Shown: positions 1 to 31,157 of the stretch, in pieces | How positions within the stretch are numbered: position 1 is the first letter of the stretch | How the letters are laid out: every line of letters starts with the position of its first letter | DNA from: Alphaproteobacteria bacterium | Lineage (GTDB): Bacteria; Pseudomonadota; Alphaproteobacteria; SMXP01 | Length of the DNA: 64,000 nucleotides | NCBI GenBank assembly: GCA_028285305.1 | Contig: JANQPV010000037.1 | Coordinates: 94,838 to 158,837, forward strand | Direction of reading: 5' to 3' | Made by a program: the position numbers and the translations under genes | Notes under the pieces: generated by a model | Told to the model about the DNA's origin: nothing | Seen by the model: only the letters and a program-made list of their open reading frames with translations | Databases searched by the model: none

Positions 1-324
1 TTCTTTCTGGCCATCCGTCCCCGCTCCCAGGAGCCCTGCTGTAGCCAGAACCGCACTCGCCATGTAAGGAGCCGGCGCCACATAGCGGCCCATCATTTCC
101 TGAACGAGAGCCGCATCCAAGAAAGTCAGCCCCAATCCACCGTGATCTTCGGGAACCAACAGTCCGGGCACGCCCAATTCAGTCAAGCCTTCATGCAGCC
201 GCGTGGCAAGAGAGCGGTCGCCGCTCGCATATATGCGCACATCATCAAGAGGAGATTTGTCCTCCAAGAACCGCTTGACGGACTCTTGGAGCATCCGCTG
301 TTCTTCGGTGAGCCCAAATTCCAT
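1..324 (-). CDS. acyl-CoA dehydrogenase, N-terminal part (partial; 3' end lies beyond the window start)
   Basis: My reverse-strand translation from the ATG at 322-324 gives MEFGLTEEQRMLQESVKRFLEDKSPLDD...LGVPGLLVPEDHGGLG, a typical ACAD N-terminus. An AGGAAG RBS overlaps the stop of the upstream ACAD. The ORF is cut by the window edge, so it is absent from the ORF track. Confidence 0.7.
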   Translation of the reverse strand, partial: MEFGLTEEQRMLQESVKRFLEDKSPLDDVRIYASGDRSLATRLHEGLTELGVPGLLVPEDHGGLGLTFLDAALVQEMMGRYVAPAPYMASAVLATAGLLGAGTDGQKE

Positions 325-336
325 GGTGTCTTCCTC

Positions 337-1527
337 TTACGCTTGTGCCGGTTTCGGCTCGCGCGGCATGTCCAAACCCCGCTCACTGATAATGTTCTTT
401 TGGATTTGCGCGGTGCCGCCGCCGATGATCAGGCCTAAGTCAAACATGTACTTGAACTGCCAGTCCCCCTGATCGCGGATATAGGGACTATTGTCGTAGA
501 GAATGCCCAGTTCCCCCATGGCGTCGATGGCAAGAGCCGCGAGCTGATGATTGATCTCGCAGCCTTGCAGTTTCACGATCAAACGCGCCAGACCCGGGTC
601 TTCTTTCTTTAACGAGTGGGTGACAAGCCGCAAGCCATGATACTCCATGGCATAGACGCGCGCCTGCAATTTCACCAGGCGGTCCCGGAACAAAGGATTG
701 TCGATGAGACGTTCGCCGTCGATGGTCTCTTTGTGCATGATCTCGATGATCGCCTCAAGGCGAGCCCGGGCCGCATTGGGATCGCCCAGCATTCCCCGCT
801 CATATTTGAGGGTGGAGTTCGCAACCAGCCACCCTTCGCCCCGATTACCCACAATCTGACTGGTCGGCACACGAACATCCGTGAAAAAGACCTCGTTGAA
901 GACCTCCGCCCCGGTCATCGTGTTGAGCGGCCGTACCTCAATGCCCGGCGTGTCCATGGAAAACAAGAGATAGCTGATCCCCTTGTGCTTGGGTGCATCG
1001 GGTTCCGTTCGCACCAGACAGAAGATCATGTCCGCGTGCTGGGCCGTACTGGTCCAGATCTTTTGACCGTTGATCACGAAGTCATCACCGTCCACATGAG
1101 CTTTCGTCTGAAGACTTGCCAGATCACTGCCCGCATTGGGCTCCGAGTAGCCTTGGCACCATATCATCTCCCCCCGGAGCGTCGGCTCGATATACTGTTT
1201 CTTTTGATCTTCCGTGCCGAGCTCAAGGAGCGTGGGGACGAGCATTGAGATCCCCTGCCCGGCAAGCCCCGTCGACACGCCGGCCTTCGCAAATTCTTCC
1301 GCAATGATACGTGACTTGAGGATATCCGGCTCCGCGCCAAAGCCGCCATACTCCTTTGGGATCGTTCGGGCCGCAAAGCCGTGGCTAATCAAGGTCTCTT
1401 GCCACGCCAAACGCTTGGCACTCTTCATGCCGTCGTTCATGCCCGGGGCATCCTTCCCGTGGTACGAAAGAAATCCTCTCACGTCGTCACGAAAGGTTTC
1501 ATATTCGGGCTTAAGCTGGAGATCCAT
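337..1527 (-). CDS. acyl-CoA dehydrogenase (AtuD/LiuA-like)
   Basis: 396-aa ORF with ACAD-family sequence throughout (MDLQLKPEYETF..., IWTSTAQHADMIFCLVRTEP, C-terminal catalytic region). It sits in tandem with the partial ACAD at 1-324. Confidence 0.85.
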   Translation of the reverse strand: MDLQLKPEYETFRDDVRGFLSYHGKDAPGMNDGMKSAKRLAWQETLISHGFAARTIPKEYGGFGAEPDILKSRIIAEEFAKAGVSTGLAGQGISMLVPTLLELGTEDQKKQYIEPTLRGEMIWCQGYSEPNAGSDLASLQTKAHVDGDDFVINGQKIWTSTAQHADMIFCLVRTEPDAPKHKGISYLLFSMDTPGIEVRPLNTMTGAEVFNEVFFTDVRVPTSQIVGNRGEGWLVANSTLKYERGMLGDPNAARARLEAIIEIMHKETIDGERLIDNPLFRDRLVKLQARVYAMEYHGLRLVTHSLKKEDPGLARLIVKLQGCEINHQLAALAIDAMGELGILYDNSPYIRDQGDWQFKYMFDLGLIIGGGTAQIQKNIISERGLDMPREPKPAQA

Positions 1528-1578
1528 TGTACTTCCGTTTTCCGTTCGGTTACGAATAAGTGTCTCGCGCGAGGAGGA

Positions 1579-2379
1579 TCACGCTTCGATATGACGTTGA
1601 CCCGGCGCAGGTGGATCCTCCGGCGGCCCAGCAAAACACTGGGCCATGGACATCCATGTATTCGCCGTTTCTCCGCGGACGGTCAATTCGGTATCTTTCA
1701 GGTTGCGCGTCTGGGTCACGACCCGGCAGAAATCCACGGCACTGCCTTCAACCATGTTACGCGGCTGAGGTTCGTTCCACTCCCACGTCTCGCCTGATGG
1801 CGCCGTCAATTTGACATAAGGCTTATCTTCCGGAACGTCCATCTTCCGATTCACAAAAGTCCAACCGAACGTGTTGATGCCGATGACAGCAATGTTCTTA
1901 ATACGATCGGCCTCCTGACGTTCGATGCCGAGTGTATCGAACACCTCTTGGCCGTGGGCCCAGGTTTCCATCTGCCGCGCGGTAATACAGGACCGCGCAC
2001 TCATATCGGGACCGGCCCATTTTAGCCGCGCTTTGGGATCGACATCTTCGTAGTTCTTGGCTGTTTTTTGGTAGTAATCCCGCCACGCTTCAAAAAGCGC
2101 TCGCCCCGACGCACCCTCCAACCAATCGTACTGTGTCTCCAGCACCGATTTCCCTTTGGCCATTGCGGCGCCAATATCTGCAAAAAACGCATCGAACTTA
2201 GCCCCGTCTTCCAAAGTCAGATCCGCCGCGTAATTAAACATATGCAGATGTCCAAGAACATCGTCGATTGTCCAATCTTTGAACAGAGTTTTCTTTTGGA
2301 AGTCTTGCTCTTCAAGGGGCTCAAGAATCGCAGCGAGAGCATCGCTCTCTTCTCTAAAATCGACGGCTTGTTGCAACAT
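1579..2379 (-). CDS. DinB-like / mycothiol-dependent maleylpyruvate isomerase N-terminal domain (TIGR03084-like) family protein
   Basis: The ORF is 1579..2523, but the conserved family N-terminus MLQQAVDFREESDALAAILEPL...DWTIDDVLGHL starts at Met49. A GGAGGAG RBS lies just upstream of that ATG at 2379. Confidence 0.6.
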   Translation of the reverse strand: MLQQAVDFREESDALAAILEPLEEQDFQKKTLFKDWTIDDVLGHLHMFNYAADLTLEDGAKFDAFFADIGAAMAKGKSVLETQYDWLEGASGRALFEAWRDYYQKTAKNYEDVDPKARLKWAGPDMSARSCITARQMETWAHGQEVFDTLGIERQEADRIKNIAVIGINTFGWTFVNRKMDVPEDKPYVKLTAPSGETWEWNEPQPRNMVEGSAVDFCRVVTQTRNLKDTELTVRGETANTWMSMAQCFAGPPEDPPAPGQRHIEA

Positions 2380-2402
2380 GCTCTCCTCCGGTCTTAGCGA
2401 CG

Positions 2403-3539
2403 CTAGACGCCCACACTTTCGGTAAGGCGCTCGTAGGCGCGGACAAAGTCTTCTTTGAATTCTTGCACCACCGCACCGGCCGACATGGACTGGTTCATCA
2501 GTCCTACGCCTTGACCAACCCAATAGGTCGCAAGTTCCTTTGCCCCTTCGTGCCCCCCTTGAGAGAGTTTGTCAATTTTGCCCAAAGCCGGCTCGCTCAC
2601 AAGCGATTGCAGCGGCATGGGGAGCGGAACGGGTCCTTCGTTTTCCCAAGCATCCGTCCACGGAGACCGCAGCTGACGGGAGTGTTTGCCCGTTCTGCTC
2701 CGGGAGCGAACGGTATCTCTGGAACTCGCCGACAGCATCTTTTCTTTAACCACCGGATTGGTCTCCGCTTCGGCGGTTGTCAGCCAAACGGATCCGGTCC
2801 ACGCTCCTGATGCACCCATCGCCATGCACGCCGCCATCTGAGCGCCGGTTACAATGCCGCCGGCCGCCAGGATGGGGACGTCTTTCACCGGCTGGATCGC
2901 TTGATAGACTTCCGGGATCAGGACCATCGTTGAGACATCTCCGCAGTGGCCACCAGCTTCCCCGCCGGCCACGACCAAGATATCGACACCCGCATTGACC
3001 TGTGCAATCGCATGCTCTTTTGCACCGACAAGCGCCGCCACCGGTACATTATGCTCTTTACCCATATCAAGCATGATCTTTGGCGGCACGCCCAGTGCAT
3101 TGGCAACCAGTTTGATCGGAAACTCAAAGGCGGCTTCCAGGGAAGCGGTCGCCCCCTCCACTTGCAGATTGGAGCCAAACTGAGACCCGGTTCGGCGGTT
3201 TTCATCCAGATCATCCGTATCTATATCATGTTTGTTAAGCACTCCGTTGGCGAACTGAATATGCTCTTCCGGTATCAGAGATTTGATCTGATCGGCCGAA
3301 GGTGTTTCCCCCTTACCCTCAAACTTATTCGGCACAATAAGATCGATGCCATAAGGCTTTCCGTTCGTATGCTCATCGATCCAGGTAAGCTCTTCGCGCA
3401 AACGATCGGGTGGCAGACTGACGGCCCCCAACACACCCATGCCACCTGCATTCGAGACAGCTGCAACAACGTCCCGGCAGTGACTAAACGCCACCAGCGG
3501 AAACTCGATACCTAACATTTCACAAATTCGAGACTGCAT
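2403..3539 (-). CDS. nitronate monooxygenase (NMO / 2-nitropropane dioxygenase family, FMN-dependent)
   Basis: 378-aa ORF with an NMO-family TIM-barrel sequence (GMGVLGAVS..., GGIVTGAQMAACMAMGASGAWTGSVWL). A GAAGGAAAG RBS lies upstream. Confidence 0.8.
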   Translation of the reverse strand: MQSRICEMLGIEFPLVAFSHCRDVVAAVSNAGGMGVLGAVSLPPDRLREELTWIDEHTNGKPYGIDLIVPNKFEGKGETPSADQIKSLIPEEHIQFANGVLNKHDIDTDDLDENRRTGSQFGSNLQVEGATASLEAAFEFPIKLVANALGVPPKIMLDMGKEHNVPVAALVGAKEHAIAQVNAGVDILVVAGGEAGGHCGDVSTMVLIPEVYQAIQPVKDVPILAAGGIVTGAQMAACMAMGASGAWTGSVWLTTAEAETNPVVKEKMLSASSRDTVRSRSRTGKHSRQLRSPWTDAWENEGPVPLPMPLQSLVSEPALGKIDKLSQGGHEGAKELATYWVGQGVGLMNQSMSAGAVVQEFKEDFVRAYERLTESVGV

Positions 3540-3571
3540 GGTCTTTCCTTCTCTGAATCGATCAGACGGCC

Positions 3572-5566
3572 TTACGCCGCATCATCCTCGACCTTAACTT
3601 CCACAAGCATATCATCGGCCGCAACTTGAGCGCCAGGGGTTGCCGGCACAGCGGCGACCACCCCATCCACTTCCGACAAGATCTCGTGTTGCATCTTCAT
3701 GGCTTCTAGAATCGCCAGCCGCATGCCTTTGGAAACCCGATCACCCTCCTTGACAAAGACTTCGGTAACGGCGCCGTGCATCGGCGCAACGACGAGACCG
3801 CCACCCCCCTTGGCCTTTTGCGACTTAGAGACCGCAACCTCATTCGTCAAATCGAACGTCCGACCTTGGGTGCCAAGTTGAATACGTTCGTTGCCTCTGG
3901 TCAAAAACGTGTAACTTCCCGTCACTCCGTCGATTGTCAGCTTAGCGGTGTGACCTTCGATCGCCTTCACCTCCGCCCCATGAGAAGCGTCTCCAATCAC
4001 CACGGAATAGTGGCTCGCGCTCGAAGGCCGAACGGTTACGTCGAACGTCTCCTCGCCCACCTTGAATACGTAGCGGCTCGCCAACGCGCCCGTGCTTGAC
4101 CAGTTTCTGAGTTCTTCCGAAACCATCACACTCTCGGCCATCGCCCCTGTATAACAACTTTCGTAAAGCAAGAGAGCCGCCGCTATTAGATCGGAAGGCG
4201 CAGGAATCTGAGCTTGATCGACATCGAAATCTTCAACCAGAAAGGCCGTCGTTGCCTCACCTTTTGCAAACTTTTCCGCACTCAAAGCATCAATGAGAAA
4301 CCGCTGGTTGGTGGTGACACCAAACAAGCTTGTATTGGCCAGACCGCTAATGAGCCGTTTGCGGGCGATGTCGCGGGTCTCCCCCCAGGAGATGACTTTG
4401 GCAAGCATAGGGTCATAGAACGAAGAAACGTCCTGCCCTGAGGCAATTCCCGCGTCAAACCGGAGATGATCCTGCTCGGCAGGTGACCAAAGGTCGATAC
4501 GCCCGGTGCATGGCAGAAAGCCCTTAGCCGGGTCCTCCGCATACAGACGCACCTCCATTGCGTGCCCATTTAGTCTAACGTCTTCTTGGCTCAATCCCAG
4601 CTCGGCCCCTTCCGCCACGCGAATTTGAAGTGCGACAAGGTCATGTCCCGTAATCAACTCCGTTACAGGGTGCTCCACCTGCAGTCGCGTATTCATTTCA
4701 AGGAAATAGAACGAGCCCGACTCATCCAACAAGAACTCAACAGTCCCGGCGCCGCGATAATCAATCGCTTTCGCCGCTTCAACCGCCGCACTCCCCATCC
4801 GTTCACGCAGCTCTTCGGTCATTACCGGACACGGCGCCTCTTCAATAACTTTTTGATGCCGGCGCTGAACAGAACAATCGCGCTCACCCAAATGAATGAC
4901 ATTCCCATGAGTGTCCGCAAAGACTTGGATCTCAACATGACGGGGGCGGATGATCGCCTTTTCAAGAATGATCTCGTCGGACCCAAAGGACCGTTCCGCC
5001 TCGGATCTGGCGCGCTCGAGGGCTTGCGGCAAGTCCGCCGCGTTGTCCACCAGCCGCATCCCCCGCCCGCCGCCGCCCGCGGCAGCTTTGACCATGATGG
5101 GAAAGCCAATATCGTTCGCCGCTGATATCAGGGTTTCGTTGGACTGATCCTCCCCTTCATAGCCCGGCACACACGGAACGCCCGCATCAATCATTCGGCG
5201 CTTTGCGGCCGCCTTGTTTCCCATCAATCGAATAGCGTCTGGCGTCGGCCCGATGAATGTGAGGCCGCCATGCTCACAGGTCGCTGCAAAATCTTCGTTC
5301 TCCGACAGAAAGCCGTATCCGGGATGGACGGCTTCGGCGCCCGTTTCCTTGGCCGCCTTCAGTATGCGGTCCTTATCAAGGTAGGACTCACCCACAGGCG
5401 GAGGTCCGATGAGCGCCGCCTCATCTGCGAACCGGACATGGGGGGCGTCGGCATCCGCCTCGGAATAGACCGCGATGGTTCGATATCCCAGGCTCTTGGC
5501 GGTTTTCATAACCCGAACGGCGATTTCACCGCGATTGGCAACCAGAATAGATGTAAAGGAACTCAT
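3572..5566 (-). CDS. biotin-dependent acyl-CoA carboxylase alpha subunit (biotin carboxylase + BCCP; geranyl-CoA / methylcrotonyl-CoA carboxylase alpha, AtuF/LiuD-like)
   Basis: Biotin-carboxylase N-terminus ILVANRGEIAVRVMKTAK, ATP-grasp core, and a C-terminal biotinyl domain with EAMKMQH. The likely start is Met34 of the 697-aa ORF, which has an RBS upstream. Confidence 0.85.
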   Translation of the reverse strand: MSSFTSILVANRGEIAVRVMKTAKSLGYRTIAVYSEADADAPHVRFADEAALIGPPPVGESYLDKDRILKAAKETGAEAVHPGYGFLSENEDFAATCEHGGLTFIGPTPDAIRLMGNKAAAKRRMIDAGVPCVPGYEGEDQSNETLISAANDIGFPIMVKAAAGGGGRGMRLVDNAADLPQALERARSEAERSFGSDEIILEKAIIRPRHVEIQVFADTHGNVIHLGERDCSVQRRHQKVIEEAPCPVMTEELRERMGSAAVEAAKAIDYRGAGTVEFLLDESGSFYFLEMNTRLQVEHPVTELITGHDLVALQIRVAEGAELGLSQEDVRLNGHAMEVRLYAEDPAKGFLPCTGRIDLWSPAEQDHLRFDAGIASGQDVSSFYDPMLAKVISWGETRDIARKRLISGLANTSLFGVTTNQRFLIDALSAEKFAKGEATTAFLVEDFDVDQAQIPAPSDLIAAALLLYESCYTGAMAESVMVSEELRNWSSTGALASRYVFKVGEETFDVTVRPSSASHYSVVIGDASHGAEVKAIEGHTAKLTIDGVTGSYTFLTRGNERIQLGTQGRTFDLTNEVAVSKSQKAKGGGGLVVAPMHGAVTEVFVKEGDRVSKGMRLAILEAMKMQHEILSEVDGVVAAVPATPGAQVAADDMLVEVKVEDDAA

Positions 5567-5580
5567 GCCGTCCACTTCCC

Positions 5581-6396
5581 TTATTTGACTTGATCCGCCC
5601 AGTTTGGTTTGCGTTTTTCCAAGAAGGCGGCAACACCTTCTTTGCCCTCCGGCCCAAGCATACATTCAGCGAAACCGTTTGCCGCCATATCCAGCATCGC
5701 GTCCCGGTCAAGCTTGGGTGTTGCCAAAACGATGTCTTTGGTGACCGCATTGGCACCGGGAGCACACTTCATCACTTGTTTCTTGATGTCCGCTTCGATG
5801 CGTTCCATATCGGCGACATCTTTTGCGACGAAGTCCGCCAGTCCATTTGTGCCCGCATCAAGGCCGGTGAACCGTGCAGCCGTCAGCATCAGGCGCCGCG
5901 CCGTTGTCATGCCGAGCCTTTGAACGACAAAGGGGGCAATTTGCGCCGGCGGAATCCCAAGCGTCGTTTCAGTCAAGGCGAATTTAGCGTCTTGCGTTAC
6001 GACAACGATGTCTCCCGTGCACACAATGCCCAGACCTCCCGCCATTGCCACCCCTTCAACCAACATGATCACGACTTGTGGCATCGTGTTGATAAGGCCG
6101 AACAATTCACCGCCCGCTCGGCTCGAGGCGGCAACATCTTGAACGGTTTGCTCACCACCCTGAAAATTCGACTTAAAGCCTTTCAGGTCGCCGCCGGCAC
6201 AAAAGACACCGCCTTTACCGCGCAGCGTAATTCCCCGCACGGTACGATCGTCCCGCACGGACTCCAACACATTTCTGAGGTCCGACGTCAGCTCGCCCGA
6301 TAGCGCGTTGCGCGCCTCTGGCCGATTAAACCAAATGGTCAGCCATCCCCCATCGAATTCAGTCAAAACATACTCTGTACTCGGCAAATTGGGCAT
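5581..6396 (-). CDS. enoyl-CoA hydratase/isomerase family protein (methylglutaconyl-/isohexenylglutaconyl-CoA hydratase-like, AtuE/LiuC-like)
   Basis: Crotonase-fold motifs (LTIWFNRPEARNAL, FCAGGDLKG). It lies between the carboxylase alpha and beta subunits. Confidence 0.8.
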   Translation of the reverse strand: MPNLPSTEYVLTEFDGGWLTIWFNRPEARNALSGELTSDLRNVLESVRDDRTVRGITLRGKGGVFCAGGDLKGFKSNFQGGEQTVQDVAASSRAGGELFGLINTMPQVVIMLVEGVAMAGGLGIVCTGDIVVVTQDAKFALTETTLGIPPAQIAPFVVQRLGMTTARRLMLTAARFTGLDAGTNGLADFVAKDVADMERIEADIKKQVMKCAPGANAVTKDIVLATPKLDRDAMLDMAANGFAECMLGPEGKEGVAAFLEKRKPNWADQVK

Positions 6397-6426
6397 TACT
6401 TCATTCCCCCCCGATAGACCAGTCCA

Positions 6427-9833: not shown

Positions 9834-9880
9834 ATCTTCTTCCTCACCTCCGATTTATAGCCACTCAATCAAAACAACGG

Positions 9881-10768
9881 CTACAAGTGCAGTTTGCCTT
9901 CAGCGACGATGACGGCTTCGCCCCCAATATGAGCTGAAGCGAGAGATCCGTCCTGGACATCCATTTCGAGCGTAATGACAGACGGGCGCTCCATTTCAAA
10001 TCCCTGTTCAAGAGCGACCGTGTGGGAACCGTTCTGCAGAGTTTCAAATTTCATAACCACGCCTGCAAACCCGGCCGCGGCCGATCCGGTCGCTGGATCT
10101 TCCGGAACGCCGGCCCTCGGGGCAAACATACGCGTGTGATAGTTCTTCTTCGGATCATCCGTTTCGGGACAATACACGTAGACGCCGACCAACTGATCGG
10201 AACCGAAAGCCTCATCCCAATGGCCCAGATCAGGACTTGCTTCATTAATGGCCTCTCTGCTTTTGACCGGGACATAGGCAAACGCCACTCCCGCTGAAAA
10301 GTAGCTGGGAGCATGCGCGTCAAATCCTATATCGTCCGTGGACAACCCAAGCGCTCGTGCCGCCGCACCGGAATTGGGCCCAACGCCAACTTCTTCTGGA
10401 ACTTGCGGCACTCGAAAGCGCGCAGAGGCCGATAATGCGCTTTTGGTGGAAACTTCGCAGGGCACCAATCCCACATTTTCATGAAGAACCACTCGCTCGC
10501 CTGCCCCAGCCTTGAGCGAAAGCCAGCAAGCCGCGCCCACGGTCGGGTGACCGGCAAAGGGCATTTCATAGGTCGGGGTAAAGATTCGGATACGCCCCGT
10601 ACTATCTTCTCTCTCCCGCGCAAGGACGAATACCGTTTCCGAAAGATTGAATTCCCGCGCGATCTTTTGCATCGTTTCCGAACTCAGCTCATCCGCATGC
10701 GGCACAATGGCCAGAGGATTCCCCTCCAACGGCGTATCCGTGAAGACGTCAAGTACGGCATAATCCAT
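9881..10768 (-). CDS. PhzF family isomerase (phenazine biosynthesis PhzF-like)
   Basis: MDYAVLDVFTDTPLEGNPLAIV... is a PhzF/DAP-epimerase-fold signature. The likely start is Met32 of the 326-aa ORF. Confidence 0.7.
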   Translation of the reverse strand: MDYAVLDVFTDTPLEGNPLAIVPHADELSSETMQKIAREFNLSETVFVLAREREDSTGRIRIFTPTYEMPFAGHPTVGAACWLSLKAGAGERVVLHENVGLVPCEVSTKSALSASARFRVPQVPEEVGVGPNSGAAARALGLSTDDIGFDAHAPSYFSAGVAFAYVPVKSREAINEASPDLGHWDEAFGSDQLVGVYVYCPETDDPKKNYHTRMFAPRAGVPEDPATGSAAAGFAGVVMKFETLQNGSHTVALEQGFEMERPSVITLEMDVQDGSLASAHIGGEAVIVAEGKLHL

Positions 10769-10797
10769 GCGGGCAGCCTCTCCAAACTGCGTGGTTC

Positions 10798-11490
10798 TTG
10801 ACAGATAGTATCTCTTCCGTATTATATTTACAACCCGACCGGGCGGGTTTTTTGAGAACATTTAGGATCGCCGATGTGACCGTAACCGACGCAGAACCCC
10901 GCAAACAACAAGTGCGCAGCGCAAAGTCTCAGGAAAAGATCCTCAAGGCCACGCTCGCGTGTTTGGCGGATCACGGGTATGCGGAAACCTCCCTTAACCG
11001 CGTGGTGGAGATGGCGGGCCTCTCCAAAGGCGCGCTGAAACATCACTTCCCATCCAAAGAAGATCTGATCGTTGAAACCGTGAACTATCTCCTTCACCGC
11101 ACCGAGGTCGCGTTTGAGCTTCACAAAGAGAAATGGGCCAAAACGAAAAGTCCTGTGGGCGCCTATGTGGCATTCCTTTGGCAGAAGTTGATCAACACAA
11201 AACCCTACTTCGCGCTCATGGAAATCCTAAATGCGGCGCGCACGGACCCTGCCCTCGCCGAGCGCATCTCGTTTGCTCTGCAGACATGGAGTGACCAGCG
11301 CGTACGCAACGCGGACTTGTTCCAGTCGAGCAAGGGCGATGAGGACGTGGCGCTCCTCACCACCATGACGATTTGTCTGATGCGCGGTCTATTGGTGCAG
11401 AAACAGTTTTCGAATGACCCAAAGGAGCAACAAACAATCATCGAGCGCTGGGTGGAACTGATCGCGCCCTCGATGACGTTGCGAGAGTAG
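10798..11490 (+). CDS. TetR/AcrR family transcriptional regulator (AtuR-like position)
   Basis: HTH region KILKATLACLADHGYAETSLNRVVEMAGLSKGALKHHF. The ORF-track start is a TTG; the true start is more likely the in-frame GTG near 10876. The gene is divergent from the Atu-like operon, as atuR is in Pseudomonas. Confidence 0.8.
   Translation: MTDSISSVLYLQPDRAGFLRTFRIADVTVTDAEPRKQQVRSAKSQEKILKATLACLADHGYAETSLNRVVEMAGLSKGALKHHFPSKEDLIVETVNYLLHRTEVAFELHKEKWAKTKSPVGAYVAFLWQKLINTKPYFALMEILNAARTDPALAERISFALQTWSDQRVRNADLFQSSKGDEDVALLTTMTICLMRGLLVQKQFSNDPKEQQTIIERWVELIAPSMTLRE
10803..10813. promoter_or_regulatory. perfect 5-1-5 inverted repeat AGATAgTATCT in the divergent TetR / PhzF-AtuA intergenic region (candidate TetR operator)
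   Basis: The palindrome is read directly from the sequence. It lies in the roughly 100 bp AT-rich gap between the divergently transcribed TetR gene and the catabolic operon. Confidence 0.35.
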
Positions 11491-11607
11491 ACCAGACAGT
11501 CATCGCGAGGCCACATCGTGGCCGGCGCGAACCAGGGGCCGCCAAGTCTGATAGCGTTGCCTGGATTGCTTCGACGCGCACAGCGCAGCTCGCAATGACG
11601 CCTCCAA

Positions 11608-12882
11608 TCAATGCATCTTAAAGCGGATCGGAACGGACTTTGGTCCGCACACAAAATTTGCCTGAACCCGCTGCGGCGCACCGCTGAGTTCGATCTCATC
11701 TAGACGCGGCAACAGTTCTTCCCAGAAGATCCGCATCTCCATTTTGGCGAGATGCTGTCCAAGACAAACATGCGCGCCATAGCCAAAGGCCACATGCTTG
11801 TTGGAAGGACGCTCGACGGAAAAGCGGAACGGATCGTCAAATACCTCTTCGTCCCGGTTGCCGGAAGAATAGCACAGCATCAAGCGATCGCCTTGTGAGA
11901 CCTTCTCGCCGCGCAATTCCGTATCCGCCGTGGCAAAGCGCATGAAGTGCTTCACCGGGGTCGTCCAACGAATAGACTCGTCAACATAATTCGGAATAAG
12001 GTCCAGATTTTCTTTCAGCTTACGGAACTCATCCGGGTTTTCGCACAAAGCCCAAAGTCCGCCCGCCGTGGAACCGGACGTGGTGTCATGTCCTGCCGTT
12101 GCCACGATCGTATAATAGCCGATGGCTTCAAAGTCACCCAAACGCTCCCCATCGATTTCACCGTTCGCAATCACAGTGGCGACATCGTCTTTCGGGTTTT
12201 CCCGGCGATCCTTGGTCATCGCATTAAAGTATTCGGTGAACTCAGCCATCGTCCCCACAAGTTGATTGAACCGTTCTTCCGGCGTCAGCTCGGCCTTGCC
12301 CACCCGGCTGTTGTCCGGATCTTCAGGTCCGAAGAGCTCTTGAGTGAGTTGGAGCATCGTGGGCTCGTCTTCTTCCGGAACACCCAGAATCTTCATGATC
12401 ACGTGCAACGGATAGAGAAACGCCACATCCTTCGCGAAATCGCATTCCGTTCCGAGGCTCGCCATGTGGTCGACAAATCCTCTTGCGATGACCCGGATAT
12501 CATCTTCCAGCTTGCGCAGGTTCGGCGGCATAAACCAATTTTGCGTCAGCATACGGTGTTTCATGTGATCGGGATTGTCCATCTGGACAAGAGACCGTAC
12601 CAGATGAGGGCCGCCGACCATCTTGTGAACGAACTCTTCCCCTTCAATCGTATTGATTGGGTTCGAATGATCGCCCGCGTGAAAGAGTTCATTGTCCTTT
12701 TCCACCGCAAGGATGTCGGCATGTTTGGTCACCGCCCAGAACGGATGGAACCCGTCAACCTTAGCAACCGCAAGGGGCATTTCCCGGCGTAGGAACGAGA
12801 ACGTGTCCTGCAGGCGGTCTTCATCCGCATACGCCTTAGGGTCTACAAGATCGAATGCTTTATCTGAGGGAATGATCTGCAA
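11608..12882 (-). CDS. cytochrome P450 monooxygenase
   Basis: Heme-binding loop FGYGAHVCLGQHLA, EXXR, and an I-helix region. 424 aa. Confidence 0.9.
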   Translation of the reverse strand: MQIIPSDKAFDLVDPKAYADEDRLQDTFSFLRREMPLAVAKVDGFHPFWAVTKHADILAVEKDNELFHAGDHSNPINTIEGEEFVHKMVGGPHLVRSLVQMDNPDHMKHRMLTQNWFMPPNLRKLEDDIRVIARGFVDHMASLGTECDFAKDVAFLYPLHVIMKILGVPEEDEPTMLQLTQELFGPEDPDNSRVGKAELTPEERFNQLVGTMAEFTEYFNAMTKDRRENPKDDVATVIANGEIDGERLGDFEAIGYYTIVATAGHDTTSGSTAGGLWALCENPDEFRKLKENLDLIPNYVDESIRWTTPVKHFMRFATADTELRGEKVSQGDRLMLCYSSGNRDEEVFDDPFRFSVERPSNKHVAFGYGAHVCLGQHLAKMEMRIFWEELLPRLDEIELSGAPQRVQANFVCGPKSVPIRFKMH

Positions 12883-12912
12883 TGTACTGTATCCGTTTAG
12901 AGTTCGTTCTGC

Positions 12913-13710
12913 TTACTTGCCAACATAGTTGGGTTTGCGTTTCTCCATGAACGCTTTGGGTCCCTCGATCGCATCCTGCGTTCGGAAAACTGGTCCTGAG
13001 ATCTTGTTTTCGAGCTTCAGTGCCTCTTGCTCCGGCTTGCCGAGGCATTCCTTTACGGACTGGCGTATCGCCTTCACGGCAAGAGGTCCGTTGCCGGCGA
13101 TCTTTTCGGCGATCTCCATGGCCTTGCCCATCACATCGTCGGTGACGTAGTTGAGAAAGCCCATCTCCAAAGCATCACTTGCTGAGATAAGGTCACCTGT
13201 CAAAAGCAGTTCCATCGCCTTGGCGTAGGGAATTTGCACCGGCAAACGAACGGTGGACCCGCCTGCGGGGAAAAGAGCCCATTTCACCTCTTGCACGCCG
13301 AGCTTCGCGTCTGGGTGCGCCACACGTATATCCGTTCCCTGAACGATCTCCATACCGCCGGCAATCGCATGCCCGTTGATTGCGGCAATGACCGGCTTTT
13401 CAACGTCGAAATTTCGAAGGAGCGCCCGGCTCGTAAGCCCGGGATCAGCAGCCACCTTTTCATCCCATTCATTCTCGGGCTTGCGCGTGCCGGACACCAT
13501 GGGGATCAGTTGCGCCAGATCGGCTCCCGCGCAGAAGGCTTTCCCGTTGCCGGTCAGCACCACGACTCGCACATCATCATCGTCCCGGGCGTTTTGGAAC
13601 CCATCGGCCAATCGAACGGCCACTTCAGGATTTATCGCATTCCGGGCATCCGGGCGATTCAGAGTGATTGTCGCAATATGATTGGCGACTTCATAAGTCA
13701 CGAGAGCCAT
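12913..13710 (-). CDS. enoyl-CoA hydratase/isomerase family protein
   Basis: Crotonase fold: ITLNRPDARNAINPEV, FCAGADL. 265 aa. Confidence 0.85.
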   Translation of the reverse strand: MALVTYEVANHIATITLNRPDARNAINPEVAVRLADGFQNARDDDDVRVVVLTGNGKAFCAGADLAQLIPMVSGTRKPENEWDEKVAADPGLTSRALLRNFDVEKPVIAAINGHAIAGGMEIVQGTDIRVAHPDAKLGVQEVKWALFPAGGSTVRLPVQIPYAKAMELLLTGDLISASDALEMGFLNYVTDDVMGKAMEIAEKIAGNGPLAVKAIRQSVKECLGKPEQEALKLENKISGPVFRTQDAIEGPKAFMEKRKPNYVGK

Positions 13711-13763
13711 GGTGTTTCCATCCTATCCGTTTTGAGAGGTCATTTTGGCCCATGTGATGGCAT

Positions 13764-14087
13764 ATGTTTTTCGTGCGCGCAATCGGCGGACGATTGTACA
13801 AGCGTGACTGTTTCTTTTATGGTGCGCCAAAATCGCTGGAGGAAACACGAGTGGAGCTTACGGCAAGCGACTGGCTCATTGTGGTGGGTCTCGGCGGGAT
13901 TTGGCTGGGCGTTCAGATCCTTTGGGTCGGCGGCCTGCCCCGTCAATTGCGAAGCGGTGAAACGCCGACAGCCCCCAAGGGAACACCAGAAGCATTCGGA
14001 CTCTTTTGGATGGATCAATACGGCTATATCGGCCTCACGCTCGGGCTTGGCGGAGCCCTCCTCGCAGGGATGGGGGCGCTGTCATGA
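13764..14087 (+). CDS. small hypothetical membrane protein (two predicted TM helices)
   Basis: It has hydrophobic stretches LIVVGLGGIWLGVQILWVGG and YIGLTLGLGGALLAGMGAL. Its stop overlaps the ATG of the downstream MAPEG gene (ATGA). The start is uncertain. Confidence 0.35.
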   Translation: MFFVRAIGGRLYKRDCFFYGAPKSLEETRVELTASDWLIVVGLGGIWLGVQILWVGGLPRQLRSGETPTAPKGTPEAFGLFWMDQYGYIGLTLGLGGALLAGMGALS

Positions 14088-14467
14088 GTCAAATTCCAAT
14101 CACTGCTCTCTATGCCGGCGGTCTGGGCCTCCTATCTGTCCTCCTAGCCAACTACGTGCTCTATGCAAGGATCAATGCGCGCACCTTGCCCAAATGGAGC
14201 CCCGACGCTGCCCTTAGGGTGCAAGCCAATTTTGTCGAAAACGCGCCGCTCGCGCTCATTCTCCTTTATCTCATCGAAGTCAGCGGAGCGAGCGCATCTA
14301 CAATGCACGCATTTGGTACGGCGCTGGTGATCGTCCGTCTCCTGCATGCTTGGGGATTGGCGCGCCATGAAGGAGCCAACTATCCAAGATTGATTGGCGC
14401 CCAAGGCACCTTTTTGCTCATGTCCATCATGAGCGTAACGCTCGTTTACAGCTACCTTATTCAATAA
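14084..14467 (+). CDS. MAPEG family membrane protein (microsomal GST-like)
   Basis: MSQIPITALYAGGLGLLSVLLANYVLYARINA...ENAPLALILLY is typical of bacterial MAPEG proteins. The start is at Met27 of the listed ORF. Confidence 0.65.
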   Translation: MSQIPITALYAGGLGLLSVLLANYVLYARINARTLPKWSPDAALRVQANFVENAPLALILLYLIEVSGASASTMHAFGTALVIVRLLHAWGLARHEGANYPRLIGAQGTFLLMSIMSVTLVYSYLIQ

Positions 14468-14500
14468 CGCGAAAAGACCGACACGGTGAGGGAGACCCCG

Positions 14501-16093
14501 ATGACCATCGAGAAAATACAATGTGTTGCCGATTGCGTTCGCTATCATGCGGAACGCCAGCCGGACAAAGTGGCGACCATGTTCGACGACCGCATTACGA
14601 CCTATGCGGACTTAGACACATTCTCTTCGCGGGTTGCCAACGGGCTGATCGCTGAGGGGATCAAGCCCCAGGACCGGGTTGCCTATTTGGGAAAAAACAG
14701 TGACCTGTACGCGCAATTGCAGATGGGCATCAGCAAAGCCGGCGCCGTCGTCACGCCCGTCAACTGGCGCCTCGCGGCGCCCGAGGTCAAAGGCATCCTC
14801 AATCACTCGGACGCCCGCATCCTCTTTCTTGGGGATGAATTTGTCGGCATGATCAACAAGATAAAGGGCGAACTCCAGAGCATTGAGAAGATCATCGTCA
14901 TGGAAGAGGCGACCGCTGACTATCAGGATTATGCCTCGTGGCGGGATGCCCAATCCGACACAGATCCAATGGTTCCAATCTCCGGAGAAGATATCTGCTT
15001 TCAACTGTACACCAGTGGGACGACGGGCACGCCAAAAGGCGTCATGCTTAAAACCGAGGGCGTGTTCGCTGGGTTCGAAGGCATTCCCGGCGTTTTTCCG
15101 GAGGAGTTTAAAGGGACCTGGCGCGAGCCGAACGAAGGCGAAGTATCCCTTCTTGTGGCCCCCAATTTTCATCTGAGCGGCAACGGCAATTCCTACCTCA
15201 CCCTGCGGGAAGGCGGCACGCTTCTCATTCATCCTGACTTCGATATCGAGCGGATCCTGTCGGACATTGAAAAGTACAAGATCAGCCGCGGCTTTATGGT
15301 GCCGGCCATGATGAAATTCGTCATTGACCGGATCAAGAAAGGCGCTGCCGATCTCAGCAGCCTGCGCGTCATCACCTATGGCGCCTCCCCCATCCCGCCG
15401 GAACTGATGAAAGAGGTGGTGGATCTGATCGGCTGCGGTTTTGTGCAGATGTACGGCATGACGGAGATCGGCACCAGTTGTACGTTTTTGGAACCGGAAG
15501 ATCACCTGGACTTTGAAAGTCCGCGCCTCAAAAGCTGCGGCAAAGCGGGCGATATCTTTGACATCAAGATCTGCGATCCTTCCACCGGCGCCGATCTGGC
15601 AACCGGCGAAATCGGCGAGGTCGTCATCCGCACACCCACTTTAATGGCCGGCTACTATAAGAACCCGGAAGCCACGGAAAAAGTGATCAAAGATGGCTGG
15701 TACTACTCGGGCGACGCAGGTTATCTGGACGAAGACGGTTTTCTCTACATCGTTGACAGATTGAAGGATATGGTCGTCTCGGGCGGCGAGAACATTTACT
15801 GCGCCGAAGTGGAAAGCGCCCTCGCCGAGCACCCGGCCGTGGCCGAGGCAGCCGTCATCGGCGTACCGTCCGAGAAATGGGGCGAGGAAGTCAAAGCGCT
15901 GGTTCGCCTGGAGCCCAATCAATCCGTCAGCGAAGTGGATTTGATCACCTTTACCCGCGAACTGCTGGCCGGGTACAAGGTACCCAAATCCATTGAGTTC
16001 CGCGAAGAGCTGCCTCGCAATCCCTCCGGCAAACTCCTCAAGAACGTGCTGCGCGAGCCCTATTGGAAGGATCACGAACGCCGAGTGGGGTAA
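14501..16093 (+). CDS. AMP-dependent acyl-CoA synthetase/ligase
   Basis: AMP-binding motif YTSGTTGTPKGVML and C-terminal GKLLK. The ATG at 14501 has a GGTGAGGGAG RBS; the track start is an upstream GTG. Confidence 0.85.
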   Translation: MTIEKIQCVADCVRYHAERQPDKVATMFDDRITTYADLDTFSSRVANGLIAEGIKPQDRVAYLGKNSDLYAQLQMGISKAGAVVTPVNWRLAAPEVKGILNHSDARILFLGDEFVGMINKIKGELQSIEKIIVMEEATADYQDYASWRDAQSDTDPMVPISGEDICFQLYTSGTTGTPKGVMLKTEGVFAGFEGIPGVFPEEFKGTWREPNEGEVSLLVAPNFHLSGNGNSYLTLREGGTLLIHPDFDIERILSDIEKYKISRGFMVPAMMKFVIDRIKKGAADLSSLRVITYGASPIPPELMKEVVDLIGCGFVQMYGMTEIGTSCTFLEPEDHLDFESPRLKSCGKAGDIFDIKICDPSTGADLATGEIGEVVIRTPTLMAGYYKNPEATEKVIKDGWYYSGDAGYLDEDGFLYIVDRLKDMVVSGGENIYCAEVESALAEHPAVAEAAVIGVPSEKWGEEVKALVRLEPNQSVSEVDLITFTRELLAGYKVPKSIEFREELPRNPSGKLLKNVLREPYWKDHERRVG

Positions 16094-16096
16094 GCC

Positions 16097-19467: not shown

Positions 19468-20241
19468 ATGAGCGTACTTGATGCTTTCAAACTCACCGAT
19501 AAAACGGCCGTCGTCACTGGTTCCGGCCGCGGCATTGGACGCGGAATAGCCTTGGCTCTTGCAGAAGCAGGTGCAAATGTTGTGGTCTCGGCCCGGCGAC
19601 AAGACGATATCGATGCTGTGGCCAAAGAGGTTGAAGGCCTGGGGCAACAGGCGCTGGCCATTGCCGCGGATGTGACGAGTTCCGAAGATATGGATCGCTT
19701 GGCTCAAGGGGCTGTCGACAAGTTCGGCACCATCGATATCTGGGTGAACAATGCCGGCGGCCTCCCCGATGGCACACCGCGTTACCTCACAAAAACGTCT
19801 GAGGACAAATTCGCCGGCCAGATCAATTTGAACCTTAACGCTGTCTGGCTGGGGTGCGTCACTGCCGCCCAACACATGAGCGAAAACGGAGGCGCAATCA
19901 TCAACATTTCTTCGCGGGCCTCACACGGACCGCAGATCAAAAACGGCCCCTACGGCGCGTCGAAGGCAGCCGTGAACAGCCTTACATCCACCTTCTCCGT
20001 CGAACTCGCCCCGAAAATCAGGGTGAATGCCGTGGCCCCAGGACCCATTGTAACTGACAATTTCCGCGACAGCATGAACATCCAAGACGGCGAGTACGAA
20101 GAAAAGCTCCGCAAGATGATCAACATTCCACTAGAACGCTATGGAGAGCCCGAAGATATCGGTGCAGCCGTTGTCTACTTCGCCTCCCCGGCTTCAGCCT
20201 GGGTCACGGGACAAGTTCTTTTTGTGACGGGAGGCCTATAG
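19468..20241 (+). CDS. SDR family NAD(P)-dependent oxidoreductase
   Basis: TGSGRGIGRGIA Rossmann motif, NNAG, and a catalytic YGASKAA. 257 aa. Confidence 0.9.
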   Translation: MSVLDAFKLTDKTAVVTGSGRGIGRGIALALAEAGANVVVSARRQDDIDAVAKEVEGLGQQALAIAADVTSSEDMDRLAQGAVDKFGTIDIWVNNAGGLPDGTPRYLTKTSEDKFAGQINLNLNAVWLGCVTAAQHMSENGGAIINISSRASHGPQIKNGPYGASKAAVNSLTSTFSVELAPKIRVNAVAPGPIVTDNFRDSMNIQDGEYEEKLRKMINIPLERYGEPEDIGAAVVYFASPASAWVTGQVLFVTGGL

Positions 20242-21783: not shown

Positions 21784-21785
21784 GG

Positions 21786-30800: not shown

Positions 30801-31157
30801 GATACTCACTTCACTACTGAACGCACAGGCTCTATTCACCCGCACGGGAACCTAATGCAAAGCCAAGAGCTCAACAATTCAAATTCAGAAAAAATTTGTT
30901 AACAAAGAGGTTATCAGTAGATTTGGTGAGCACACTGTAGAAAAACTGTGACAAAACAAACGTCGTTCCGCATGGAGTTAACCAGAGAATGGTTAAGTCA
31001 AGACCAAACCCTATCATTTACCAATTGAACTCACTTATGGCACTAATCTGCACAAGGATATATTGTTACACGCCCGCAGTCGGCCTGGCTTGCCCAGACT
31101 ACTAACATTGGATATTGTACAAGCTGTTTCTCGGACGAATGATGGAAACGGTGACCC

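Follow-up and report, generated by a model that had tools for sequence, protein, structure and literature searches.

Gene content and boundaries of the locus

The window (the whole stretch of DNA analysed, 64,000 nucleotides) probably derives from a marine alphaproteobacterium, and in Pfam, NCBIfam and PDB searches of its first 16 kb every gene family named in an earlier note was recovered at its place. These 16 kb are four transcription units and not a single block: PhzF to the small subunit of an acyl-CoA dehydrogenase (ACAD; minus strand), a TetR gene (plus strand), a second crotonase with a cytochrome P450 (minus strand), and a 78-aa membrane ORF with a MAPEG and a synthetase gene (plus strand). 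The core is the first unit, a tightly packed nine-gene chromosomal operon on the minus strand (positions 1–10768) with the order PhzF, AtuA, carboxyltransferase, hydratase, biotin carboxylase-BCCP, NMO/FabK-like protein, TIGR03084 protein and alpha/beta ACAD pair; adjacent genes overlap by as much as 4 nt or lie at most 51 nt apart, and the intergenic regions showed no terminator-like sites. The left window edge cuts the operon, which continues for about 0.8 kb on a Logan contig of the same organism and is followed downstream of its last gene by an unrelated TetR gene and then RND efflux genes. The right boundary at 16093 was sound, with DUF3179, photolyase, SDR and DPRP beyond it. The term island, under which the genes had been described, was not supported in the sense of horizontal transfer: GC content was flat across the window (0.52–0.60), and the same window carries the housekeeping genes rpoD, dnaG, carAB and pckA.

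For comparison, 80 AtuA-anchored loci and a set of 61 related loci were used. The synteny of AtuA, carboxyltransferase, enoyl-CoA hydratase and biotin carboxylase was kept in about 48 of the 61, from marine Alpha- and Gammaproteobacteria. The arrangement of the locus (MAPEG, 78-aa ORF, second crotonase, P450, TetR, PhzF, AtuA onward) was kept by one closer relative alone (L083), with 84–96% protein identity for most genes despite a DNA identity of about 73%.

Carboxylase, hydratase and AtuA

The carboxyltransferase beta subunit (540 aa, 6427–8049, minus strand), the start of which overlaps the AtuA stop by 4 nt, gave 608 bits and 50.6% identity over 534 aa with PaGCC beta (5ikl_B) in the PDB search, compared with 452 bits for MCC beta (3u9r_B) and at most 235 bits for structures of the saturated-acyl-CoA (classical PCC) lineage; 9tps_A, a chain merely named PCC beta, gave 446 bits. 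Gly164 occupies the selectivity position (Gly162 in GCC, Phe191 in MCC), at which a Gly-to-Phe change swaps GCC and MCC specificity (PMC4673880), and the protein lacks the 3-residue insertion of MCC. The GG motif was retained in 59 of 61 AtuA-adjacent carboxyltransferases, and the residue test discriminates, because the second carboxyltransferase of Parvibaculum loci shows the MCC signature. The alignment starts at residue 6; the protein therefore has an N-terminal helix that PCC beta lacks. Judged by matches and residue signature, the subunit is of geranyl-CoA-carboxylase type (AtuC-like), not PCC or MCC. The AtuF-like alpha subunit (664 aa, 3572–5566, minus strand) combines biotin carboxylase, BT domain and BCCP (Pfam Biotin_carb_N, CPSase_L_D2, Biotin_carb_C, BT_MCC_alpha and Biotin_lipoyl) and is conserved in 49 of the 61 related loci.

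A housekeeping or leucine-catabolic PCC or MCC, resembling the Atu enzyme only superficially, would fit the top PDB match of the alpha subunit (MCC alpha, 3u9s_A, 572 bits) and the lack of a GCC-specific equivalog from NCBIfam, no equivalog cut-off of which was reached by the biotin carboxylase subunit or the hydratase. This reading is nevertheless highly improbable in view of the beta subunit scores, the Gly in place of Phe, the missing MCC insertion, the N-terminal helix and the position of the gene between AtuA and an AtuE-like hydratase, in an operon with neither an isovaleryl-CoA dehydrogenase nor an HMG-CoA lyase gene (both sought with Pfam and NCBIfam and in the Logan contig extension). 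The carboxyltransferase thus did not show the kinship to propionyl-CoA carboxylase that, by the earlier note, would have counted against an Atu-like core.

The enoyl-CoA hydratase (271 aa, 5581–6396, minus strand; Pfam ECH_1) had been called AtuE-like, and its top PDB match was indeed AtuE, isohexenylglutaconyl-CoA hydratase (4zu2_A), with 231 bits versus about 100 for generic crotonases; against the NCBIfam gamma-carboxygeranoyl-CoA hydratase model it reached 148 bits, below the equivalog cut-off of 426.

The 595-aa protein (8046–9833, minus strand) was confirmed as AtuA by a full-length HMM match (PF07287, 477 bits) together with AtuA_ferredoxin. It joins in one chain a CmlA-like catalytic domain and a ferredoxin-fold domain resembling CmlB/DUF4387, and by fold homology it corresponds to both subunits of the citramalate lyase CmlAB. 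CmlAB splits citramalate directly into pyruvate and acetate (bioRxiv 10.64898/2026.01.16.699985). ThnQS, which is AtuA-like, acts as a lyase on an acyl-CoA carrying a tertiary alcohol (PMC12016498), and AtuA has already been listed tentatively as HIHG-CoA:acetate lyase (PMC4847356). A corresponding role of the present protein as 3-hydroxy-3-alkylglutaryl-CoA:acetate lyase would be consistent with this homology. In Pseudomonas the lyase step has reportedly been assigned experimentally to LiuE, so we infer the lyase role of AtuA rather than assign it. SAR11 and Parasphingorhabdus loci have AtuA with TIGR03084 and no carboxylase within 10 kb, so AtuA-type lyases may also have roles in other settings.

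Remaining operon genes, regulator and neighbouring units

The large ACAD subunit (396 aa, 337–1527, minus strand) contains all three ACAD domains (Pfam). Of the small subunit, the N-terminal 108 aa lie in the window (1–324, minus strand; Acyl-CoA_dh_N); the full protein, encoded by the last gene of the operon, has 363 aa on the Logan contig (L002, 5151–6242) and, of the ACAD domains, only the N- and C-terminal ones. The top NCBIfam matches, all below cut-off, were PimC-large for the large subunit and IpdE2 and PimD-small for the small subunit, and the top PDB matches of the large subunit were 4x28_A (ChsE4-ChsE5) and 6wy8. From domains and matches, the two are a heteromeric large/small pair of alpha2beta2 type, ChsE4/5- or PimCD-like, and the former label AtuD-like had to be withdrawn. 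In L064 and L074, orthologues of the large subunit (69–72% identity) occur at the corresponding place in the operon, and the pair is kept in 2 of the 61 relatives. A true AtuD-type ACAD, which adjoins atuA in 20 of the 80 relatives and in L083, is absent at this locus, as are the AtuB and AtuG dehydrogenases.

Three further operon genes would encode accessory enzymes, two of which (TIGR03084 and NMO) recur in many relatives. No other non-Atu protein accompanies AtuA as persistently as the TIGR03084-family DinB/MDMPI-like metal-binding protein (266 aa, 1579–2379, minus strand; 314 bits, cut-off 248). The FabK-like NMO-family FMN protein (378 aa, 2403–3539, minus strand; PF03060, 157 bits), present in 17 of the 61 related loci, matched best in PDB to FabK enoyl-ACP reductases (5gvh and 3bo9, about 128 bits) and is possibly an enoyl-thioester reductase. 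The first gene encodes a PhzF-family isomerase (295 aa, 9881–10768, minus strand; PF02567, 215 bits; TIGR00654, 228 bits, cut-off 76) with 69% identity to its counterpart in L083. Homologues were undetectable across the 80 AtuA-anchored loci, and the gene is a lineage-specific addition.

Divergent from the operon lies the gene of a TetR-family regulator (204 aa, 10876–11490, plus strand; TetR_N). Its sigma-70-like promoter (TTGACA-16 nt-TATTAT, 10798–10825, plus strand; 11 of 12 consensus positions) was the only promoter-like site found within 9700–16300, and both hexamers are conserved in L083. An inverted repeat, ACAACCCG-N6-CGGGTTTT (10830–10851), in the divergent region between TetR and PhzF-AtuA is a candidate operator, likewise conserved in L083; the window contains no second good site. 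Six relatives carry the same architecture, ACAAnCCG-N6-CGGnTTGT, at a distance of 65–166 bp upstream of atuA, and 7 of the 12 matches to it in 1.5 Mb fall at the atuA promoter position. TetR orthologues are divergent from atuA in 12–14 related loci (34–46% identity; 84% in L083), and the protein is unrelated to the Caulobacter TetR that accompanies P450. Orthologues and repeat together support the earlier AtuR-like reading, with TetR as the cluster's own regulator and a functional analogue of AtuR; it would repress the operon through the repeat.

The P450 (424 aa, 11608–12882, minus strand) is CYP108/P450terp-like, of a family including terpene hydroxylases, with 454 bits to P450terp (1cpt_A), 432 bits to 3tkt, which we take to be CYP108D1, and 387 bits to P450tol. 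Upstream of it in the same unit is an EchA19-like second crotonase (265 aa, 12913–13710, minus strand; ECH_1, 188 bits; NCBIfam EchA19, 291 bits, cut-off 400), 96% identical in L083. The plus-strand unit begins with the 78-aa ORF (13851–14087), which gene calling recovered on the Logan contig as well as in L083. This ORF has no Pfam or NCBIfam match, contains two hydrophobic segments that probably span the membrane, and overlaps by 4 nt the start of a MAPEG-family membrane protein (127 aa, 14084–14467, plus strand; PF01124, 54.6 bits). A long-chain-type acyl-CoA synthetase follows (530 aa, 14501–16093, plus strand; AMP-binding and AMP-binding_C; NCBIfam PRK06187, 537 bits, cut-off 476). It could fill the AtuH-like role given to it earlier, although synthetases near atuA in relatives are only 25–34% identical to it.

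The earlier note had joined all 16 kb into one extended pathway. In its full form, the P450 would oxidise or hydroxylate an isoprenoid, the synthetase would activate it, the second crotonase, PhzF, NMO and MAPEG proteins would process it, and the Atu core would then remove the methyl branch. The P450 family, the long-chain type of the synthetase and the arrangement retained in L083 speak for this, as do L015 and L040, in which a 46–48% identical P450 and a Zn-alcohol dehydrogenase precede atuA by 4–5 kb in the same orientation. Among the 80 loci, however, PhzF and MAPEG have no detectable homologues, no counterpart of the second crotonase or the synthetase reaches 40% identity, and a P450 occurs in two. 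The tie of the P450 to the Atu core is lineage-specific. Its orthologues (64–67% identity) in Caulobacter and Hyphomonas stand beside TetR and rubredoxin, unlinked to atuA; no ferredoxin, rubredoxin or reductase gene adjoins the P450 here, nor does the window contain a rubredoxin; and the neighbouring units are transcribed separately, without the operator-like repeat before them, which occurs once in the window. The extended island is thus a weak and rather doubtful idea.

Proposed route and substrate

Most probably (about 80%), the operon encodes an Atu-type route by which an isoprenoid-like acyl-CoA loses its beta-methyl branch. Three tests independent of one another place it with Atu and not with Liu or PCC (GCC beta as best match, the diagnostic Gly, AtuE as best match of the hydratase), and the Atu-like core proposed earlier holds, AtuA included. 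An acyclic monoterpene is not the only conceivable substrate, because ACAD pairs of this class are known to oxidise steroid side chains and pimeloyl-CoA. The same carboxylation, hydration and retro-aldol chemistry could degrade alicyclic carboxylic acids or sterol side chains branched at C24; carboxylation has been proposed in the removal of such sterol side chains. Likeness of the ACAD pair to ChsE4-ChsE5, IpdE2 and PimCD and of the second crotonase to EchA19, additional P450 matches to CYP125 and CYP124 (about 200–300 bits) and the cyclic tertiary alcohol cleaved by ThnQS (PMC12016498) point in this direction. Such substrates are still unlikely, since the nearest matches of carboxyltransferase and hydratase are the Pseudomonas enzymes for geranyl-CoA and isohexenylglutaconyl-CoA, neither the window nor L002 showed further genes for steroid degradation, and few relatives keep the ACAD pair.

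In the Atu-type route, the ACAD pair would oxidise a 3-methyl-acyl-CoA to the 3-methyl-2-enoyl-CoA used by the carboxylase, and biotin carboxylase-BCCP with the GCC-type carboxyltransferase would carboxylate its gamma (methyl) carbon. The AtuE-like hydratase would then add water to the carboxylated enoyl-CoA, giving the tertiary alcohol 3-hydroxy-3-alkylglutaryl-CoA, from which AtuA may cleave off acetate in a retro-aldol reaction and leave a 3-oxoacyl-CoA for ordinary thiolysis. The crotonase–P450 and MAPEG–synthetase units would be lineage-specific neighbours outside the conserved system that may feed hydroxylated or activated substrate into it. The operon is a lineage variant of the known Pseudomonas Atu pathway of carboxylase, hydratase and lyase, and it would remove a beta-methyl branch that would otherwise block beta-oxidation.

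Gene content, transcription units and conservation

ORFs across 1-16093 were listed and translated, then scanned against Pfam and NCBIfam for family calls, and every gene family named in the earlier note was reproduced; the coordinates match those of the genes called on two Logan contigs from the same organism. Nine consecutive genes lie on the minus strand, all called from the Pfam and NCBIfam scans: PhzF (9881-10768), AtuA (8046-9833), a carboxyltransferase beta subunit (CT, 6427-8049), a crotonase, the AtuE-like hydratase (5581-6396), a biotin carboxylase alpha subunit with a complete BC, BT and biotinyl domain set (BC-BCCP, 3572-5566), a FabK-like FMN protein (NMO, 2403-3539), a TIGR03084 protein (1579-2379; NCBIfam 314 bits, cut-off 248) and the large (337-1527) and small (1-324) subunits of an acyl-CoA dehydrogenase (ACAD), the latter truncated by the window edge and 363 aa at full length on L002, a Logan contig of the same organism. 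They are followed to the right by a TetR regulator (10876-11490, plus strand; Pfam), a P450 (11608-12882, minus strand; Pfam), a second crotonase (crotonase2, 12913-13710, minus strand; EchA19-like, under the NCBIfam cut-off) and, on the plus strand, a 78-aa membrane ORF (13851-14087; ORF listing), a MAPEG protein (14084-14467; Pfam) and a long-chain-type acyl-CoA synthetase (14501-16093; NCBIfam). The nine minus-strand genes are spaced from a 4-nt overlap (AtuA/CT) to a 51-nt gap, and no terminator-like site was found in any of their intergenic gaps; the cluster was therefore divided into four transcription units, namely the operon, TetR, crotonase2-P450 and 78-aa ORF-MAPEG-synthetase.

On the left the operon exits the window, and on L002 the genes after the ACAD small subunit encode an unrelated TetR_C_33 regulator, an RND efflux pump and a P-type ATPase; no HMG-CoA-lyase-type gene was found in the operon including this extension. 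On the right, DUF3179, photolyase, SDR and DPRP genes (Pfam) come next, which makes 16093 a sensible end of the cluster. The photolyase (17672-19213) and the photolyase-related DPRP (20236-21792) lie near each other, each beside an SDR (19468-20241 and 21786-22508). The window is chromosomal, with rpoD, dnaG, carAB and pckA present, and its GC content is flat (0.52-0.60 throughout); a horizontally acquired island was ruled out on both grounds, so that the word 'island', used in the earlier note, is unjustified in the sense of horizontal transfer. The rpoD ORF (42584-45118, minus strand) is 844 aa long with sigma region 1.1 starting from residue 192, and has either a long N-terminal extension or an over-extended start. 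Elsewhere in the window, a 544-aa ORF without a Pfam match (29211-30845, minus strand) adjoins a GT28/EryCIII-like glycosyltransferase (26757-28046) and an NAD-dependent epimerase (28118-29137).

GTDB species representatives were scanned with AtuA, which yielded 80 loci (59-68% identity) from marine or aquatic Alphaproteobacteria (Parvibaculales, Rhodospirillaceae, Kordiimonas, sphingomonads, Pelagibacteraceae) and from Gammaproteobacteria (Halieaceae and others). Kordiimonas laminariae 5E331 (L018) and Parasphingorhabdus flavimaris SW-151 (L037) are cultured organisms among them, the former with the core cluster and the latter with the AtuA-TIGR03084 pair only. Downstream genes were counted on the same strand in the 61 loci that extend 9 kb or more beyond atuA: BC-BCCP was present in 49, CT and hydratase in 48 each, TIGR03084 in 40, NMO in 17 and the ACAD pair (at least 50% identity) in 2. 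Upstream (n=64 loci with at least 6 kb), TetR was present in 12 and the P450 in 1 (P450 in 2/80 overall). None of the 80 loci has a detectable homologue of PhzF, MAPEG or the 78-aa ORF, nor one of crotonase2 or the synthetase at 40% identity or above. The whole layout is kept only in L083 (GCA_041940745.1), the closest relative, with proteins 69-96% identical and DNA about 73%. Compared with L003, another AtuA locus, the hydratase (89.6%) and NMO (85.9%) stand apart from AtuA, CT, BC and TIGR03084 (61-68%). Recent recombination was considered as a cause and rejected, since DNA identity is uniform (68-73%), which points to uneven constraint and not to recent exchange.

Assignment of the carboxylase, hydratase and AtuA

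Judged from its protein sequences, the core of the operon is Atu-type, and three independent tests, on CT, hydratase (by nearest structure) and AtuA, agree. The best solved relative of the CT was the Pseudomonas aeruginosa geranyl-CoA carboxylase (GCC) beta subunit 5ikl_B (608 bits, 50.6% identity over 534 residues), compared with 452 bits for the 3-methylcrotonyl-CoA carboxylase (MCC) beta subunit 3u9r_B and at most 235 bits for structures of the saturated-acyl-CoA, classical propionyl-CoA carboxylase (PCC) lineage; 9tps_A, a PCC beta in name only, scored 446. The N-terminal helix (~30 residues) is missing from PCC beta (PMC4673880) and is present in the window CT, whose alignment to GCC begins at residue 6. 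By these scores and its GCC-like N-terminus, the CT is not that of a housekeeping PCC. Gly162 in GCC corresponds to Phe191 in MCC, where the Phe is preceded by a three-residue insertion, and exchanging this residue exchanges the substrate preference; the trans isomer has been argued not to fit the GCC active site (PMC4673880). In the window CT the site is occupied by Gly164 (TKGGTMFANQ, against VEGARGFANQ in GCC and EHFGRIFFNQ in MCC) and the three-residue MCC insertion is absent. The GG motif is kept in 59/61 AtuA-adjacent carboxyltransferases. In two Parvibaculum loci (L004 and L005) a second CT beside the cluster, 40% identical, has the MCC motif REHFGRIF together with the insertion; as a positive control it shows that the Gly/Phe test discriminates.

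In the same Parvibaculum MAGs a crotonase, CT and biotin carboxylase set lies directly upstream of atuA, so that a Liu-type module adjoins an Atu-type one. The AtuA-adjacent CTs of two further loci (L068 and L079) have Phe (NFGRLF) in place of Gly, a hint that part of the AtuA-linked clade may have switched to a small substrate.

The hydratase had as its best solved relative the AtuE isohexenylglutaconyl-CoA hydratase (4zu2_A, 231 bits), compared with about 100 bits for generic crotonases; against the NCBIfam equivalog PRK05674 it scored 148 bits (cut-off 426). The best PDB match of the BC-BCCP was MCC alpha, a subunit from which substrate specificity cannot be read. The locus reads as neither a Liu (MCC) nor a PCC system. 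With the Liu pathway (MCC, LiuABCDE) it has in common the lineage of gamma-carboxylating biotin enzymes and the logic of carboxylation, hydration and lyase cleavage, but it has no Phe with three-residue insertion, no isovaleryl-CoA dehydrogenase and no HMG-CoA lyase.

For the 595-aa AtuA, PF07287 matched over profile positions 1-435 of 437 (477 bits) together with AtuA_ferredoxin (88 bits), which bears out its earlier identification as DUF1446/AtuA. A sequence search against the PDB gave no solved relative of AtuA. An AlphaFold2 model built from 50 homologues (pLDDT 86.5, pTM 0.88) was compared by fold and gave one outstanding Foldseek match, 9evf_A, 'citramalate lyase - ADP - pyruvate complex' (E 2.6e-22, target TM 0.76). 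AtuA carries the CmlA fold and a DUF4387-type ferredoxin-fold partner, and as modelled it joins both Cml subunits in one natural fusion protein. The AGG, GR..D and ILEC motifs are common to AtuA and CmlAB (PDB 9erq/9evf; AtuA family plus DUF4387), as is the proposed chemistry, in which acetate is released by retro-aldol cleavage from a tertiary beta-hydroxy acid; AtuA differs in being a single fused polypeptide with only ~17% identity, and it presumably acts on a CoA thioester that bears a long alkyl or alkenyl group, whereas CmlAB acts on free citramalate. By description, AtuA can also be likened to ThnQ/ThnS of anaerobic naphthalene degradation, an AtuA-family lyase whose substrate, a tertiary-alcohol acyl-CoA, cannot undergo beta-oxidation, although ThnQ/ThnS has two subunits, cleaves a ring and belongs to a sulfate-reducer pathway. 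Since the AtuA, CmlAB and ThnQS reactions would all be retro-aldol cleavages of a tertiary beta-hydroxy acid with release of a free carboxylic acid, we infer from the observed fold homology that AtuA acts as the lyase of the operon; with a fused Cml-type lyase of this kind, the operon would need no HMG-CoA-lyase gene.

Comparison with the Pseudomonas Atu system

TetR orthologues (34-46% identity) occupy the same divergent position in 12-14 related loci, and the TetR of L083 is 84% identical. The tetR promoter matches the sigma-70 consensus at 11/12 positions, with the inverted repeat ACAACCCG-N6-CGGGTTTT (10830-10851) a short way downstream; this repeat is kept in L083 although its flanks diverge. 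The architecture ACAAnCCG-N6-CGGnTTGT recurs 65-166 bp upstream of atuA in six other loci, and 7/12 matches (at most 2 mismatches) in 1.5 Mb of related loci sit at this promoter position. No other match to the repeat better than chance was found in the window, and none ahead of the P450 or synthetase units. The first operator candidate had been another palindrome, AGATAGTATCT (10803-10813), which the -35 and -10 elements of the tetR promoter enclose; it was rejected, as it is not conserved in L083. Neither this palindrome nor the 10830-10851 repeat has a second copy better than chance between crotonase2 and the MAPEG unit (13711-13850) or in the rest of the cluster. Pseudomonas AtuR binds inverted repeats in the atuA-atuR intergenic region, according to the title of a cited reference, and the divergent TetR with its candidate operator would parallel AtuR.

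With atuR-atuABCDEFGH of Pseudomonas aeruginosa and P. citronellolis the window has in common AtuA, a GCC-type beta subunit with the Gly signature, a hydratase that is AtuE-like by nearest structure and a BC-BCCP alpha subunit, as well as a divergent TetR with a (candidate) inverted-repeat operator in the regulator/atuA intergenic region. The gene order A, C, (D), E, F is also common to both, and L083 even fills the atuD position with an ACAD, a 380-aa single-subunit enzyme between CT and hydratase (7976-9118 of L083), orthologues of which (50-77% identity) lie beside atuA in 20/80 loci. The window holds no orthologue of it (best 27% identical), and its CT-ECH gap at that position is 30 nt. 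The window further differs from Pseudomonas in having no AtuB, AtuG or AtuD and, at the operon end, an alpha2beta2-type ACAD pair instead; in three extra in-operon genes (PhzF, FabK-like NMO and TIGR03084); in a synthetase that sits in a separate unit and is only putatively the AtuH counterpart; and in its host, apparently a marine alphaproteobacterium. No SDR of any kind lies within 1-16093, the nearest SDRs (19468-20241 and 21786-22508) being past DUF3179 and the photolyase. The dehydrogenases had earlier been called AtuD-like, a label that found no support: they form a heteromeric large/small pair closest to the alpha2beta2 sterol side-chain enzyme ChsE4-ChsE5 (4x28), PimC/PimD and IpdE2. 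With AtuA, GCC-type beta subunit, alpha subunit and divergent TetR with candidate operator all present, the locus is predicted to work like the Pseudomonas Atu system.

An extended pathway, in which a methyl-branched substrate would first be hydroxylated or oxidised and then lose its branch by the Atu route, had been suggested in the earlier note. The full-length PDB matches of the P450 were P450terp (454 bits), 3tkt (432 bits), which we take to be CYP108D1, and P450tol (387 bits). In P450 nomenclature, membership of a family is set at 40% identity or above; judged from bit scores alone, the P450 would be CYP108-like, which fits the terpenoid theme. The terp operon has a ferredoxin, a reductase and dehydrogenases adjoining its P450, whereas the window P450 has none of these adjacent. 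In L015 and L040 atuA is preceded on its own strand, 4-5 kb away, by a P450 46-48% identical, and in L040, the one of the two that is annotated, the genes in between include a Zn-alcohol dehydrogenase and a DUF7064/7065 protein. On the other side, a P450 is present in only 2/80 loci, and P450 homologues 64-67% identical are widespread in Alphaproteobacteria, those of Hyphomonas neptunium and Caulobacter vibrioides being flanked by TetR and rubredoxin and unlinked to atuA. PhzF is an isomerase-family protein found within this lineage only. What stands of the suggestion is an extended pathway that is possible for this lineage, on adjacency in two genomes and the plausibility of the gene families only; the P450 and the other extra genes should not be annotated as pathway members on adjacency alone.

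The loci of these P450 homologues, L084 (7045-9275, Hyphomonas) and L085 (7270-9465, Caulobacter), show a recurring P450-small rubredoxin-TetR module. Neither a rubredoxin nor a relative of the Caulobacter-type P450-linked TetR was found in the window.

TIGR03084, the NMO and isoprenoid-acid turnover

A sequence search of the TIGR03084 protein against the PDB gave no match, and for it as for AtuA the leads came from profile and fold searches only. Its model has an MDMPI-like two-domain fold, and residues H44, E138 and H142 are invariant. Proteins with a DinB fold serve many purposes. The literature searched contained no mention of TIGR03084. In L037 (10001-12633, Parasphingorhabdus flavimaris) TIGR03084 follows AtuA after 24 nt in a two-gene unit, and the same pair is present in L033, L039, L042, L046, L048, L049, L051, L052, L072 and L073; loci of this type have no carboxyltransferase, biotin carboxylase or AtuE-like hydratase within 10 kb, so the pairing can exist without the carboxylase. 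In L077 (10001-21554, a Pelagibacteraceae SAG, SAR11) AtuA is followed by an ABC ATPase, an acyl-CoA synthetase and two Peripla_BP_6 genes and, further on, by thiamin pyrophosphokinase, an FAD monooxygenase, an AtuE-like hydratase (64% identity) and TIGR03084, with the NMO on the opposite strand; no carboxylase was found within 10 kb, and L080 and L081 have the same pattern. Because TIGR03084 accompanies AtuA where a carboxylase is absent (within 10 kb), it may work with the lyase and not with the carboxylase. In L037, TIR-domain/TPR (ThsB-like) and TPR-sensor genes (13310-16965) stand within a few kb of AtuA and TIGR03084 and look like an unrelated defence locus.

The nearest relatives of the NMO are FabK FMN enoyl-ACP reductases, so that it may be an enoyl-thioester reductase. 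The invariant H44, E138 and H142, the occurrence of TIGR03084 in 40/61 loci and the argument on the trans isomer in GCC (PMC4673880) underlie a broader reading of these associations. By that reading, which we consider improbable as it stands, the AtuA-TIGR03084(-NMO) module would be an uncharacterised marine route by which carbon from isoprenoid acids, that of phytol included, is used; it would be widespread, reaching from Parvibaculales to Halieaceae, sphingomonads and SAR11.

Beta-oxidation cannot proceed through methyl branches; the Atu route is the textbook solution in bacteria and, to our knowledge, has been studied almost exclusively in Pseudomonas. New here are the structural support for the AtuA lyase, the wide marine spread of the core and the recurrent AtuA-TIGR03084(-NMO) association. 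The structural match of AtuA to the newly solved citramalate lyase independently strengthens its assignment as the pathway lyase, which has long been tentative, and TIGR03084 and the NMO are put forward as two concrete uncharacterised enzymes. The same core of carboxylase, hydratase and AtuA lyase is found in marine Alpha- and Gammaproteobacteria with a different dehydrogenase, TIGR03084 and a FabK-like NMO, and the cluster is plausibly a route for the turnover of marine isoprenoid acids, for example from phytol or other terpenoids.
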